From the NCBI RefSeq assembly GCF_000027125.1, contig NC_017626.1: a DNA stretch of 64,000 bases; one strand, written 5' to 3'. The position numbers and the translations under genes are program-made. The notes below the pieces were generated by a model. It worked only from the letters and a program-made list of their open reading frames with translations. It was not told the origin of the DNA and ran no database searches. Positions 48,468-53,304 of the stretch are shown one piece after another; position 1 is the first letter of the stretch, and each line of letters starts with the position of its first letter. The stretch comes from Escherichia coli 042. Lineage in GTDB: Bacteria; Pseudomonadota; Gammaproteobacteria; Enterobacterales; Enterobacteriaceae.

Positions 48468-48629
48468 ATGGCTATTTCAGTAAAGCCGGTATTGATAAGT
48501 GAGAAGCAAATGGAAGCGATAAAGAAAATTCAGGAAGAGCAGCGTAAAAAATCAGGAATTGGAGTAGCGCCAACTCTGCATGAAATTGCTCGAGGGTTAA
48601 TAGATAAGGCGCTGGCAGGCTGTATGTGA
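48468..48629 (+). CDS. Small protein (53 aa), first gene of the cargo operon
   Basis: Manual translation MAISVKPVLISEKQMEAIKKIQEEQRKKSGIGVAPTLHEIARGLIDKALAGCM; AAGGGGG Shine-Dalgarno 6 nt upstream and a TATAAT hexamer at 48429–48434; below the ORF-track size cutoff. Confidence 0.5.
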   Translation: MAISVKPVLISEKQMEAIKKIQEEQRKKSGIGVAPTLHEIARGLIDKALAGCM

Positions 48630-48645
48630 AAATGGATGGCATCGC

Positions 48646-49107
48646 ATGGAACTAAAATTTATTGATAACCCTGTGCGATTACAGGCCTTTCTTAACGATC
48701 CTGGCAATACCGAAAATATTGTTGAGCCGGGGCACACGTACTACATCAAGCCTGATGCGGTATATCTCGGCATCTACGAAGGATTGGTGCTGGCTGGCGT
48801 TCATGAAGTGCGTAACTTCTGGCATAGCATTGTTGAATGCCATGCGGTGTACGACCCCGGATTCCGTGGTGAATATGCACTGCAAGGGCATCGATTATTC
48901 TGCAAATGGCTTCTCGAAAACTCACCATTCCTTAACAGCATCACTATGGTTCCTGACACCACGAAATACGGACGGGCAATTATCCGTTTGCTTGGCGCTA
49001 CCCGTGTTGGTCACCTTGATGATGCTTATATCAGATGTGGTAAACCCGTCGGCGTAACGCTTTATCAGTTAACTCGGCAACAATATAAGGAATTCAGCGA
49101 ATGTTAA
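48646..49107 (+). CDS. Cargo operon protein 1, unknown function (candidate P22 gp14-like)
   Basis: 153 aa; its stop overlaps the next start. Confidence 0.6.
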   Translation: MELKFIDNPVRLQAFLNDPGNTENIVEPGHTYYIKPDAVYLGIYEGLVLAGVHEVRNFWHSIVECHAVYDPGFRGEYALQGHRLFCKWLLENSPFLNSITMVPDTTKYGRAIIRLLGATRVGHLDDAYIRCGKPVGVTLYQLTRQQYKEFSEC

Positions 49108-49778: not shown

Positions 49779-51199
49779 TGGCGACATGGCAACTTGGCGG
49801 GCTGCCTAGCATGGCACCGCAAAATGATAATGCTCCTCGTTCTTCCGTTCCTCAGCCTGTGCAGTATCAGCAGCAGCCAAACGTAGGTTTAATGGCGCTA
49901 CAGGGGCTAAGAGGCGTTGCTGAGATTAATCAGCAGGCACGTCAACAACAGCGTAAAGCAGAGTTTCAGAAAGCATATGCCGGGGCTTTTGAGTCTGGAG
50001 ACAGAAACAAAATGCGCAGTCTTATTTCTGAGTATCCAGAAGAATTTGAAAGCGTTCAGAAAGGGATGGGCTTTATTGATGACGACCAGAGAAATTCTAT
50101 TGGTCATCTTGCGACTAGTGCTCAAATCGCATCTTCGCTCGGAACTGGGGCATTTGGAAAATTCATAGCAGATAACGAAGATGAAATGCGTCGCTTGGGA
50201 ATTTCTCCTGAGTCTGTTGCCGAAATGCATGTTAATGATCCACAGGAATTCCAGCGGCTTGCTGGTAGTATGGCACTGTTTTCTCTCGGTCATGAGAAGT
50301 ACTTCGATATCAAAGATCGAATGGAAGGTCGGGATATTGAGCGTGGCAAGTTGGCAGAGACAATCCGCAGCAATCAGGCTGGAGAGGCGCTTCAGGCGAG
50401 AGGGCAGGATATTAGCCGAGCAAATGCGTTAACGTCAGCATATGCACCAACAGCCGCAATGCAGAATTACAATCAGTACGCGCAAATGTTAAAGGCGGAT
50501 CCAGAGGGGGCAGCGGCATTTGCGGCAGCGGCTGGAATTAATACAAACGCCAAAAAATTAATGAGTGTTAGGGAAAACGATGATGGCACTGTCACAAAAT
50601 ACTACACAGACGGAAGTGAAGAGCAGGGAAAACTAAACCAGCCAATATCTGGAGATGGGTTTCGTCCAATAGCTTTGCCAACAGCCCAAAAGATCATGGA
50701 AAAGTCGCCAGAAGGGGCTAAAAAAGCTGCTGGATTTGCATACAGAGTTAGGGATGCTCTTGATTCAATGGATACACTGAAAGGCCAGCTTAGCCCACAG
50801 CGAGTGGCGATCATTAATAATGCTTTGGGTAATGGGACGCTGGCTAACTTAACGCTCAGCCCAACAGAGCAGCAATACGTTGTTAATGCTAATGACGCAA
50901 TAATGGCAATACTCCGTCAGGAAACAGGGGCAGCTATCGTACCTGCTGAAATGTCAAAATATTATCAAATGTATTTCCCTCAGCCTGGCGACTCCACAAA
51001 AACCATTGATACCAAGCGCCGGAAGATGGAAAACCAGTTCAATTCGCTGAAAGCTGCTTCTGGTCGAGCTTATGATGCTTTGCGTGTTATTTCAGCAGTT
51101 GACAGAGGAACTTCTTCTTCGTCGCAGACATTGCCGCAATCTGAGCAGGTATCACAGCCAGCAGCCAGCAGTAATTTTTCTTCACTATGGGGTGATTAA
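49778..51199 (+). CDS. Cargo operon protein 3 (candidate P22 gp20-like)
   Basis: 473 aa, Q/A-rich and predicted largely helical; TAATG coupling with both neighbours. Confidence 0.6.
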   Translation: MATWQLGGLPSMAPQNDNAPRSSVPQPVQYQQQPNVGLMALQGLRGVAEINQQARQQQRKAEFQKAYAGAFESGDRNKMRSLISEYPEEFESVQKGMGFIDDDQRNSIGHLATSAQIASSLGTGAFGKFIADNEDEMRRLGISPESVAEMHVNDPQEFQRLAGSMALFSLGHEKYFDIKDRMEGRDIERGKLAETIRSNQAGEALQARGQDISRANALTSAYAPTAAMQNYNQYAQMLKADPEGAAAFAAAAGINTNAKKLMSVRENDDGTVTKYYTDGSEEQGKLNQPISGDGFRPIALPTAQKIMEKSPEGAKKAAGFAYRVRDALDSMDTLKGQLSPQRVAIINNALGNGTLANLTLSPTEQQYVVNANDAIMAILRQETGAAIVPAEMSKYYQMYFPQPGDSTKTIDTKRRKMENQFNSLKAASGRAYDALRVISAVDRGTSSSSQTLPQSEQVSQPAASSNFSSLWGD

Positions 51200-53304
51200 T
51201 GGCTAAAGCATGGAAAGATGTTATCGCCTCTCCACAGTATCAGGCGTTAGCACCAGAACAAAAAGTGCAGGCTCAGGAGCAATACTTCAATGAAGTCGTG
51301 GCCCCGCAAGCCGGAGAAAGTGTAGAGCAGGCTAAGCAGGCTTTTTATGCTGCCTATCCACTACCATCTACGAATGAAATAGACCGATCCCAATCAGCAA
51401 CTCAAAATATTCAACATACATCATCTGATAATTCTCTTGCGTCAGGGTATGCAAAGTTAGCTACTCAGCAAAGAGAGGGGCTTGAGCGTTCAGCAGAACA
51501 GGGAGCCAGTCTTGGGGCTGCGATGCGCGATGCTATAACAGGCGAAAGCCGAATGACTCCAGAGATGGAGAGACTGCAAAATGTCGCCTCTGCCCCAGAA
51601 TTGAACTCACTAAGCATGGATGCCCTGAAGGCTGGATGGTCTCAACTTTTCGGCTCTGACGCGTCTCAGGAAAAGATTCTTCAGGGAATGGGGGCGACAT
51701 TAAGGCAGGATGAGAAGGGGAATACTATCGTTTCTCTGCCATCAGGTGATTATGCCCTGAACAAGCCGGGTTTATCACCGCAAGACCTGACTTCGTTTCT
51801 TGCTAATGCGCTGGCGTTTACACCAGCGGGCAGGGCTGGAACGGTGCTTGGTGCCATAGGAAAATCAGCAGCTACAGATTTAGCACTACAGGGAGCCACC
51901 AGCCTTGCTGGTGGAGAAGATATTGATCCGTTACAAACGGTAATTTCTGCTGGCATTGGTGGTATTGGTAAGGGGCTGGAAAATACAGCGAGTGCGGTTT
52001 CGAGGGCTGTTCGTGGTGATATGTCGCCTGAAGCAAAGGCTGCTGTCGACTTTGCATCGGAAAGAAATCTGCCGTTAATGACCAGTGACATGCTGAAAGA
52101 TAAAACCTTTATGCAGAGTCAGGCTCAGACATTAGGCGAAAGAGTTCCTTTTTTTGGAACCGGTAAGAATCGGCTGAATCAACAACAAGCACGAGAAAAT
52201 TTAGTCAGAACATTTAGCGATGGTCTGGGTGGCATTTCTGATAAACAGCTTTATGAATCTGCGACTAAAGGGCAACAAAAATTCATTGAGGCAGCAGGAA
52301 AGCGATATAACCGCATAATTGACGCTATGGGGGATACCCCTGTCGATCTCTCAAACACGGTAAAAACTATCGACAATCAGATTGCCGTGTTAAGCCGCCC
52401 TGGCAAATCTCAGGATAGAGCCGCGGTAAAAGTCTTGCAGCAATTTAAAGACGATATCACCAGCGGACCAAATGACCTGCGTCTGGCGAGGGAAAACAGA
52501 ACCGATCTTCGAAAGCGATTTATAGCGTCATCTGACACTGTTGATAAAGATACGCTCCAGAAAGCCAGCGATATTATCTACAAGGCATATACGGCGGATA
52601 TGAAAAAAGCCGTAGCCAAAAATCTTGGAGCAGACGAAGCCATTAATATGGCAAGGGTTGATCGCTCATGGTCTAAATTCAATGACATGATGGGAAGAAC
52701 GCGCGTTCAAAAGGCAATAGCCAGCGGCAAGGCCACGCCTGAGGATGTAACAAAACTCGTTTTTAGCCAAAGCCCATCAGAACGTTCTCAGCTTTACAGG
52801 CTTCTGGATGACAATGGTAGGCAAAACGCACGAGCAGCTATAGTTCAGAATGCTGTAGATAAGGCGACTGATCCGTCTGGAAATATCAGTGTTGAGAAGT
52901 TTATTAATGCGTTACACCGGAACAGGAAGCAATCAGCAACTTTCTTTAAAGGCGTACATGGAAAGGAACTGGACGGCGTTATTAAATACCTCAACGATAC
53001 AAGACACGCGGCAAAAGCGAACGTTCAAAACTTAAATGGTCAGCAGCTTTATGGATTGTTAGTTGGTGGTGGCATCATAAACGCAGCAGTATTGGCGGGG
53101 ATGCTAAAAACGGCTGCGTTTATTGTTCCTGCTGCTGGTGCCGTAGGCGGAGCAGCGAAGGCATACGAAAGCCCTGTTATACGAAATGCCTTGTTACGTC
53201 TGGCAAATACGCCAAAAGGTAGCACAGCATATGACAGAGCGATCAGTACGGTCACACAATCGCTCACCAGAGTCGTACAGGCATCACAAAAAGAAGCTCA
53301 ATAA
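51199..53304 (+). CDS. Cargo operon protein 4 (candidate P22 gp16-like)
   Basis: 701 aa; hydrophobic glycine-rich segment near the C-terminus (LYGLLVGGGIINAAVLAGMLKTAAFIVPAAGAVGGAA). Confidence 0.6.
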   Translation: MAKAWKDVIASPQYQALAPEQKVQAQEQYFNEVVAPQAGESVEQAKQAFYAAYPLPSTNEIDRSQSATQNIQHTSSDNSLASGYAKLATQQREGLERSAEQGASLGAAMRDAITGESRMTPEMERLQNVASAPELNSLSMDALKAGWSQLFGSDASQEKILQGMGATLRQDEKGNTIVSLPSGDYALNKPGLSPQDLTSFLANALAFTPAGRAGTVLGAIGKSAATDLALQGATSLAGGEDIDPLQTVISAGIGGIGKGLENTASAVSRAVRGDMSPEAKAAVDFASERNLPLMTSDMLKDKTFMQSQAQTLGERVPFFGTGKNRLNQQQARENLVRTFSDGLGGISDKQLYESATKGQQKFIEAAGKRYNRIIDAMGDTPVDLSNTVKTIDNQIAVLSRPGKSQDRAAVKVLQQFKDDITSGPNDLRLARENRTDLRKRFIASSDTVDKDTLQKASDIIYKAYTADMKKAVAKNLGADEAINMARVDRSWSKFNDMMGRTRVQKAIASGKATPEDVTKLVFSQSPSERSQLYRLLDDNGRQNARAAIVQNAVDKATDPSGNISVEKFINALHRNRKQSATFFKGVHGKELDGVIKYLNDTRHAAKANVQNLNGQQLYGLLVGGGIINAAVLAGMLKTAAFIVPAAGAVGGAAKAYESPVIRNALLRLANTPKGSTAYDRAISTVTQSLTRVVQASQKEAQ

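Follow-up and report, generated by a model that had tools for sequence, protein, structure and literature searches.

The DNA analyzed here is a 64,000-nucleotide stretch of Escherichia coli 042 (contig NC_017626.1), referred to below as the window; island and operon coordinates are given as window positions. Within an island of ~19.9 kb inserted between yicC and dinD, the window holds an operon on the plus strand whose products resemble the ejection proteins of phage P22. An earlier reading of the letters alone (hereafter the sequence-only reading) had described five co-directional genes, and all five open reading frames (ORFs) were confirmed, with products of 53, 153, 225, 473 and 701 amino acids (aa). 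A family-specific leader ORF of 53 aa (48468..48629) heads the operon. It is followed by genes for homologues of P22 gp14 (DUF2824; 153 aa, 48646..49107), of the ejection protein gp7 (225 aa, 49101..49778), of the periplasmic conduit protein gp20 (473 aa, 49778..51199) and of the membrane-acting DNA transfer protein gp16 (701 aa, 51199..53304). The four larger genes overlap as had been described, ATGTTAA joining the gp14-like and gp7-like genes and TAATG being present at both later junctions. The surroundings were also drawn correctly: the primase gene (45124..47883) is followed by iterons at 47911..48022, and the operon stands behind an intrinsic terminator that closes the replication unit (48340..48373) and has a perfect TATAAT at 48429-48434. 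Downstream, a stem-loop terminator (53307..53328; GGTTAGCC-ACGG-ATGGCTAATT followed by a T-run) separates the gp16-like gene from a convergent ORF of 139 aa, ORF139.

The sequence-only reading had likened the four larger products to the P22 ejection proteins on the basis of sizes and gene order. The P22 annotation gives contiguous genes 14-7-20-16 encoding proteins of 151, 229, 471 and 609 aa, so the sizes and order it had given were accurate, and profile searches show that the resemblance is one of homology. With the PHROG profiles, the 153-aa product was assigned to phrog_651 (gp14 family, E 1e-66), the 225-aa product to phrog_598 (gp7 family, E 1e-69), the 473-aa product to phrog_917 (gp20 family, E 1e-111) and the 701-aa product, over residues 20-699, to phrog_770 (gp16 family, E 2e-161). 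BLASTP comparison with the P22 proteins yielded 23% identity for gp14 (E 3e-8), 56% for gp7 (E 5e-54), 38% over the N-terminal 239 aa for gp20 (E 9e-46) and 30% over 482 aa for gp16 (E 3e-52). Since each product matches the corresponding PHROG family as well as the corresponding P22 protein, in the same order, a chance pattern is rejected. The fallback that had been offered, an uncharacterised secreted or membrane-acting system, is likewise rejected because all four proteins are podovirus ejection-protein homologues.

Individual features of the proteins fit this assignment. P22 gp7 is cleaved at an E|KGG context, according to the P22 record and PMC8402733, and this context is retained in the gp7-like protein, whose C-terminus forms the Gly-rich, Gly-zipper-like tail that had been noticed before. 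The hydrophobic glycine-rich segment reported for the 701-aa protein was located as a Gly/Ala-rich hydrophobic stretch at residues 617-649. The gp14-like protein is 82-85% identical to its counterparts in E. coli P22-like phages, the gp16-like protein has its nearest phage allele in N7/HZ41 (66% identity), and the C-terminal half of the gp20-like protein is mosaic. At the DNA level, the operon shares patches of 85-93% identity with P22-like phages. NCBIfam gave no match for any operon protein, Pfam-A none for the 701-aa, 53-aa and 139-aa proteins, and a sequence search of the PDB none for the gp20-like or gp14-like proteins; precomputed matches to PF26808, PF16928, PF25688 and PF11039 are carried by relatives.

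An AlphaFold 2 (AF2) model of the gp14-like protein (predicted local distance difference test, pLDDT, 91) adopts a GNAT acetyltransferase fold. In the PDB it matches SpeG/GNAT acetyltransferases best, with template modeling (TM) scores of up to 0.79; SpeG is a spermidine acetyltransferase. Because of the GNAT fold in this model, the gp14-like gene product is read as a putative enzyme-like assembly factor, not a structural protein. The canonical acetyl-CoA motif of GNAT enzymes is not obvious in the sequence. With this model the P22 gp14 family, long enigmatic, would gain a fold assignment, that of a GNAT acetyltransferase. The 53-aa leader ORF was not assigned by PHROG either. Its homologues, 65-100% identical, head the operon in the same slot in four genera, and dN/dS values of 0.05-0.17 were obtained for it. 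The leader model consists of an extended N-terminus and two helices; the matches from a fold search were non-significant, and a ribbon-helix-helix topology, with which the AF2 model is compatible, is possible.

The island that carries the operon has a close published relative. EcCIMP1 is a 19,963-bp phage-inducible chromosomal island (PICI) of E. coli MP1 (Pick, Stadel & Raivio, ISME J 2025; PMC11773190). Excision of this element takes place only with the P22-like phage vB_EcoP_Kapi1, which also transduces it, and both steps need alpA, the master regulator, and the integrase (PMC11773190). The two islands agree in size (~19.9 kb here) and in gene order, namely int, alpA, antirepressor, ash, primase, iterons, 53-aa ORF, gp14-, gp7-, gp20- and gp16-like genes, reverse alpA_1 and the PerC gene. 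Their 53-aa ORFs are 100%, their gp14-like proteins 99% and their gp7-like proteins 99.6% identical, and the primases are 10 substitutions apart over 918 codons. The islands differ in integrase and attachment site, which is yicC/dinD here and the tRNA-Thr by proA in MP1. They also differ in the last two genes of the operon: gp20 is only 49% identical, and that over the N-terminal 188 aa only, whereas gp16 of EcCIMP1, with 906 aa and a lytic transglycosylase domain, has no BLASTP similarity to the 701-aa protein found here. Among the accessory genes, a Doc-like PDC-M59 pair and ORF139 are particular to the present island. Of the two islands, only EcCIMP1 has demonstrated helper dependence, on Kapi1.

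The synteny and the high identity over the shared backbone are those of an EcCIMP1-like PICI, and further PICI characters are present as well: an integrase with attachment (att) repeats, alpA, a primase with origin, small size and no virion or lysis genes beyond the ejection module. PHROG scans of the island ORFs found no capsid, portal, terminase, tail or lysis family, several small ORFs being left without assignment; the absence of capsid and packaging genes claimed by the sequence-only reading is thereby borne out. Strong, if indirect, support exists for its suggestion of a satellite with a P22-like helper, because backbone and layout are common with EcCIMP1, which is induced and transduced by Kapi1 (PMC11773190). 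The island thus joins the published EcCIMP1-like PICI family as a new member, distinguished by an attachment site and a gp20/gp16 allele pair that are both new, and the four genes are almost certainly true gp14/7/20/16 homologues carried by a satellite of this family.

The region between the replication unit and the leader ORF contains a putative promoter. It consists of the perfect TATAAT, directly followed by a LexA-type box, AACTGTTGTTTTATACAGTT (48435-48454), the whole core spanning 48429..48454 on the plus strand; a promoter is proposed here because of the perfect -10 and its conservation across genera. The pattern CTGT-N8-ACAG occurs three times in the window, with 0.64 occurrences expected, and one of these sites is the known dinD SOS box. 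Scored with a LexA weight matrix (position weight matrix, PWM) of E. coli SOS boxes, the operon box reached 18.5 bits, a value inside the span covered by the training sites and exceeded in the window only by the dinD box (23.4 bits). The dinD box itself, AACTGTATATAAACACAGTT at 58216-58235, lies just beyond the right end of the island and served as positive control for the matrix. The counterpart in Citrobacter-type islands scored 15.6 bits and that in Serratia-type islands 21.1 bits; half-sites and position are kept, and the 8-bp spacer differs. In Klebsiella-type islands, which carry different cargo, the LexA-type box is degenerate. A CTGT-N8-ACAG element that overlaps the promoter is hence kept in three genera, and from these sequence features the operon is probably under SOS/LexA control.

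A second element, the inverted repeat TGCAAT-N13-ATTGC (48393..48417), covers the -35 region. It is the sole such site in the window, and the same architecture was found in Citrobacter-, Serratia- and Klebsiella-type islands. It may be an operator or activator site, bound possibly by AlpA, by a helper factor or by the product of the leader ORF. Capture of a late promoter or antiterminator cassette from a helper was considered as well; no homology of that kind emerged when 47884-48660 was compared by distant blastn with 50,697 phage records, and this origin was rejected.

To assess how widely the module is distributed, complete E. coli genomes were searched. The primase-to-leader junction is present in 358 of 5426 genomes and an island-type gp7 gene in 254 of the 5426 (~5%), all at 95% identity or more, and the operon type of the window, over at least 80% of its length, was found in 180. 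The window DNA itself is 100% identical to that of E. coli U15A and other strains. The EcCIMP1-type backbone occupies two attachment sites with three integrase types. In seven of eight sampled E. coli islands the ORFs of the module are intact, the eighth having an IS1 element in its gp16-like gene. The gp16-like genes of strains TUM10008 and JP538 had been called incomplete "pseudogenes" by the Prokaryotic Genome Annotation Pipeline (PGAP); these calls are artefacts, the ORF being intact at 701 aa, and calls of this kind would understate the frequency of intact modules.

For related islands outside Escherichia, homologues of the 53-aa leader ORF were used as marker, which proved better than gp7. 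Citrobacter-type islands carry the full four-gene set, Serratia-type islands gp20 and gp16 only, and two-gene variants also exist in Escherichia. In one Klebsiella michiganensis island, the leader is followed by a gene for a virion lytic-transglycosylase protein of 605 aa, which shares 67% identity with a virion protein of a Yersinia phage, and then by a TerS-like gene; in the other, unassigned ORFs and then a Terminase_2 gene come after the leader. In general, the slot after the leader ORF seems, by its gene content, to hold helper-specific virion genes. A scan of genome contigs with gp7, a pattern method that reaches close relatives only, added one further island. The 16 other loci with recognizable context were ordinary P22-like prophages, and all 16 prophage loci with sequence flanking the module had gp26 upstream and gp9 downstream.

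Comparison of EcCIMP1 with a Citrobacter-type island revealed 79-84% aa identity for the four genes, a dS of 1.2-2.2 (near saturation) and a dN/dS of 0.065-0.09. The four module genes are better conserved than the primase (69%) in this comparison, and island-to-island dN/dS values were 0.16 for gp16 and 0.28 for gp20. The module is under strong purifying selection, as judged from these substitution rates. The island gp7s form a clade of their own: identity among them is 77-100%, against 45-62% with the gp7s of phages and prophages, and none of the phage records searched covers at least 80% of the gp7-like protein of the window. Islands differ from one another by replacement of the whole gp20+gp16 pair. 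The module is a hallmark of a satellite family represented by Escherichia, Citrobacter-like and Serratia-like islands.

The genetics of P22 offer a framework for these observations. In P22, gp16 and gp20 must be cognate, while gp7 is interchangeable, and complete foreign sets of ejection proteins (E-proteins) assemble into P22 virions and function (PMC10461980). Mutations that allow escape from the exclusion protein SieA lie in the C-terminal portions of gp16 and gp20 (PMC10461980). Procapsid binding via the scaffolding protein depends on the N-terminal 314 aa of gp20 and on residues 21-154 of gp7 (PMC8402733), and the conserved segments of the island gp7 and gp20 coincide with these regions. 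The pair swaps between islands and the minimal gp20/gp16 variants mirror the cognate-pair genetics of P22. The gp20 and gp16 of EcCIMP1 are 24-26% identical to those of its helper Kapi1.

We infer that the operon serves an EcCIMP1-family PICI with P22-like podovirus helpers as its late module, devoted to helper exploitation; the functional model as a whole is given a probability of about 0.55. In the resting island, LexA bound to the box directly after the -10 would keep the operon off, and a second factor may act at the inverted repeat. DNA damage that induces the helper prophage would also cleave LexA and so lead to early synthesis of the island proteins. Helper scaffolding protein would then load these proteins into procapsids via their conserved N-terminal or central regions, and once particles with island DNA have attached to a new cell, the island proteins would build the trans-envelope conduit. 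An own cognate gp20/gp16 pair would free the satellite from the alleles of the helper, since the two proteins must be cognate and are targets of SieA-type exclusion. The likely payoff would be entry into cells that exclude the helper conduit, or rescue of helpers whose ejection genes are defective. Use of such helpers agrees with the proposal by Pick et al. that EcCIMP1 alpA_1 acts as an "insurance"; this gene is dispensable for the island and able to replace the helper xis (PMC11773190).

It is a tentative proposal, and one that we regard as rather unlikely in its full form, that the satellite family re-equips helper particles with its own conduit (cognate gp20/gp16, with or without gp7 and gp14) in an SOS-timed manner, in order to enter cells that exclude the helper conduit, such as lysogens with SieA-type exclusion, or to exploit decayed helpers. 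If it were true, the excluding lysogens so entered would be the best future hosts of the satellite, and for the first time a satellite would be pirating entry into the cell, instead of packaging or capsid size.

Several points weigh against the helper-exploitation model. E-proteins are loaded before the DNA. Helper particles would for this reason receive the island proteins too, and the benefit to the satellite is not self-evident. The LexA box is a prediction from the sequence, made with a matrix of E. coli SOS boxes, and a generic sigma-70 scan of the DNA ahead of the operon yielded no promoter, the -35 being poor. No helper prophage is present within the 64-kb window, and pac/terS homology to Kapi1 was not found. 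Transduction of EcCIMP1 by Kapi1 is very inefficient, at about 5e3 particles/ml, and a Kapi1-like prophage was present in only 2 of 21 EcCIMP1-carrying strains (PMC11773190). Finally, most of the foreign E-protein sets failed against SieA types A and B, the HK620 set alone escaping, and that partially (PMC10461980); because most foreign sets were excluded, swapping of alleles is no guaranteed bypass of SieA.

The alternative that survives best, although we consider it unlikely, is superinfection exclusion or another anti-phage function, the other option named by the sequence-only reading, in which homologues made by the resident island, perhaps with ORF139, block or poison the conduit of an incoming P22-like phage. 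EcCIMP1 does give Kapi1 lysogens added superinfection immunity against Kapi1, and PADLOC and DefenseFinder found no known defense system there (PMC11773190); the non-functional particles that result from non-cognate gp16/gp20 suggest that mixed conduits could be inactive. However, EcCIMP1 alone gives non-lysogens no protection (PMC11773190). The putative LexA-repressed promoter would suit production at induction rather than a standing defense, the best-kept regions of the proteins are the procapsid-binding ones, a homologue of the assembly factor gp14 is retained, and the E-proteins have no PADLOC match.

ORF139 (53323..53742, minus strand) deserves consideration in this context. The P22 annotation places sieA immediately behind gene 16, on the minus strand, and ORF139, directly 3' of the gp16-like gene, matches it in position and strand and has 3-4 hydrophobic segments, a multi-pass profile similar to that of SieA. 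No match to ORF139 was found in the phage, Pfam, PHROG or PADLOC libraries. As a SieA protein it was rejected: similarity to P22 SieA or to SieA types A-C was not detected, and the motif FnRYPnEAnnFNK (PMC10461980) is absent. Its slot varies between islands, which carry ORFs of 129 to 204 aa there, while the ejection genes are constant, which argues against a joint exclusion function.

Interference with the helper is less probable still. Here, non-cognate island gp20/gp16 would be co-assembled and make the helper progeny poorly infectious, analogous to the redirection of capsid size by other satellites. The low identity of the EcCIMP1 gp20/gp16 pair to that of Kapi1 would allow for such an effect, P22 with foreign gp16 alone or foreign gp20 alone yields non-infectious particles (PMC10461980), and helper interference is common among satellites. 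Yet the titres of Kapi1 after induction are not changed by EcCIMP1 (PMC11773190). The satellite's own particles would, moreover, be poisoned equally, the order of loading being the same for both.

In the EcCIMP1 paper, only a "DNA transfer/DUF2824" similarity was noted, no phage structural genes were identified, and a role in packaging was suggested (PMC11773190). A module that redirects or enables packaging of island DNA, as the discoverers of EcCIMP1 proposed for EcCIMP1_017-019, would agree with the slot downstream of the primase, which is the site of packaging genes in other Gram-negative PICIs, and with the TerS-like genes in the same operon of the Klebsiella relatives. We nevertheless hold this role to be improbable: the homologues are ejection proteins, P22 mutants with whole-gene deletions of E-proteins still package DNA (packaged length measured; PMC8402733), and no terminase or pac homology was found in the island. 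That the module is a functionless remnant of a P22-like prophage, captured by recombination (to which the 85-93% identity patches attest) and hitch-hiking on the island, is very improbable and already disfavored by the selection data, since, the IS1-interrupted gp16-like gene of one island apart, the ORFs are intact, dN/dS is low across near-saturated synonymous divergence, the gp7 lineage is island-specific, and the module is kept across three integrase/att types and at least three genera together with the conserved promoter and leader ORF.

The remainder of the island resembles other satellites of this type. An imperfect 23-bp direct repeat (21/23 positions, with an exact 12-mer core) has the appearance of an att site; its left copy, GTGTACATAGAGGTGTACATAAT (38055..38077), stands directly after yicC, between that gene and the integrase gene, and its right copy, GTGTACATAAGGGTGTACATAAT (57960..57982), upstream of dinD. 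The P4-type tyrosine integrase (38126..39385, plus strand; phrog_1, E 1e-63; PGAP tyrosine recombinase) has relatives with Arm-DNA-bind_3 and Phage_integrase domains. It is followed on the plus strand by an AlpA-family regulator (40448..40651; phrog_66), whose position matches that of EcCIMP1 alpA, and by an AntA/AntB-type antirepressor (41095..41928; phrog_5817 anti-repressor Ant, E 1e-37) that is kept across EcCIMP1-like islands. Rfam matches above the gathering threshold were obtained for int-alpA RNA (39403-39469), isrK RNA (42478-42555) and C4 antisense RNA (42618-42705). The latter two fall inside a 355-aa ORF (42097-43164) that PGAP annotates as "ash family protein", and the ORF is doubted for this reason; it is probably over-called or overlaps a P4/P1-type antisense immunity region.

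The primase (plus strand; phrog_1139 DNA primase, E 2e-178) combines Zn-ribbon, TOPRIM and DUF927 parts. The iteron block behind it, a probable origin, consists of 9-bp repeats around an AT-rich spacer, with TGGTTCAGT three times at 47911-47937 and the inverted TGAACCAAC three times at 47978-48022, and was found conserved in each of the five island variants aligned. The ~320 bp that separate it from the terminator (48020-48340) are conserved, with no convincing plus-strand ORF and no Rfam match; a short transcript ending at the terminator could be made from this stretch, which a 152-aa ORF replaces in strain TUM1857. The terminator on the plus strand (ATGCCACC...GGTGGCAT, then T7) is conserved across the variants.

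To the right of ORF139, ~960 bp (53743-54705) are without annotated gene or Rfam match, and in strain TUM10008 the counterpart of this region holds an IS3 element. Next come a second AlpA/Xis-like helix-turn-helix protein on the minus strand (54706..54891; phrog_66, E 1e-12), the counterpart of EcCIMP1 alpA_1, and a PerC-family regulator on the plus strand (55567..55854; phrog_994, E 9e-34; PGAP PerC family); the PerC homologue of EcCIMP1 represses LEE1 (PMC11773190). The last genes, on the minus strand at 56267..57792, encode a Doc-like toxin of 153 aa (phrog_577) and a 351-aa upstream partner. PADLOC assigns this pair to the candidate defense system PDC-M59 (PDC-M59B, E 8e-30; PDC-M59A, E 6e-105). 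Other islands of the family hold Abi, RnlAB or SLFN-type genes at the right end, which looks like a variable defense hotspot. Upstream of the island and unrelated to the operon, a marked low-GC stretch (30-40% GC) extends over 20000-26000. Judging by the neighbors rfaQ and waaA in matching genomes, this stretch presumably falls in or near the waa lipopolysaccharide core cluster.

Among known systems, a near counterpart of the operon is the ejection-protein gene block of P22-like phages such as P22, Sf6, HK620, CUS-3 and Kapi1. The four homologous genes occur there in the same order and with the same tight coupling, and the likeness extends to the gp7 cleavage context and Gly-rich tail, the mosaic C-termini of gp20 and gp16 and a minus-strand membrane gene after gene 16. 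In contrast to the phage block, however, the island module stands without a virion cluster, having the primase and origin upstream instead of the tail needle gene 26 and no tailspike gene (gene 9) downstream. It also has a promoter, a leader ORF and a LexA-type box of its own, whereas the phage block is part of an antiterminated late operon, and its gp7 belongs to a separate clade. A defective P22-like prophage was rejected, as the PHROG scans found no portal, scaffold, coat, tail, lysis or lambdoid early remnants beside the module. The DNA common to the island or EcCIMP1 and Kapi1 (bases 1-36435) amounts to only 596 bp, covering gp14 and the start of gp7.

Among satellites, the organization recalls operon I of the Staphylococcus aureus pathogenicity islands (SaPIs), which, in work attributed to Ubeda from 2007 (cited in PMC6739421), is said to be LexA-controlled and required for packaging. 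In both cases a satellite operon of virion-related genes follows the replication module and is, or here is predicted to be, repressed by LexA and switched on through the SOS signal by which the helper, too, is induced. The SaPI operon, however, encodes TerS and capsid-size or interference proteins that are unrelated to the ejection proteins found here, where the LexA control is read from the sequence. P4 satellites share the P4-type integrase, a P4 alpha-like primase, AlpA and the C4/CI-type antisense RNA with isrK, and the antirepressor of the present island could derepress a helper. They differ in helper, which would be a P22-like podovirus here instead of P2, and in cargo, which here consists of ejection proteins; P4-type sid, psu, delta and epsilon had no PHROG match among the island ORFs.

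To our knowledge, satellites alter capsid size, packaging specificity or helper expression, or build their own capsids, and we know of none with ejection proteins of its own. Literature searches, which included Gram-negative PICIs and capsid-forming PICIs (cf-PICIs), found no description of satellite-encoded ejection proteins. Three points appear to be undescribed: the explicit identification of a complete ejection set, its conservation across genera while alleles are exchanged as pairs, and the probable control by SOS. The complete gp14-7-20-16 set is thus a testable system for assembly of a P22-type conduit, for SieA-type sensitivity and for the access of satellites to new hosts. EcCICFT073, EcCIEDL933 and the cf-PICIs have the int-alpA-primase architecture, a PerC-like gene and a helper-exploiting module after the primase in common with the present island; they carry, however, packaging redirectors of the Rpp/TerS type or, in cf-PICIs, a full capsid set, and their helpers are lambda-like siphoviruses, whereas the module described here encodes ejection proteins of the P22 type.

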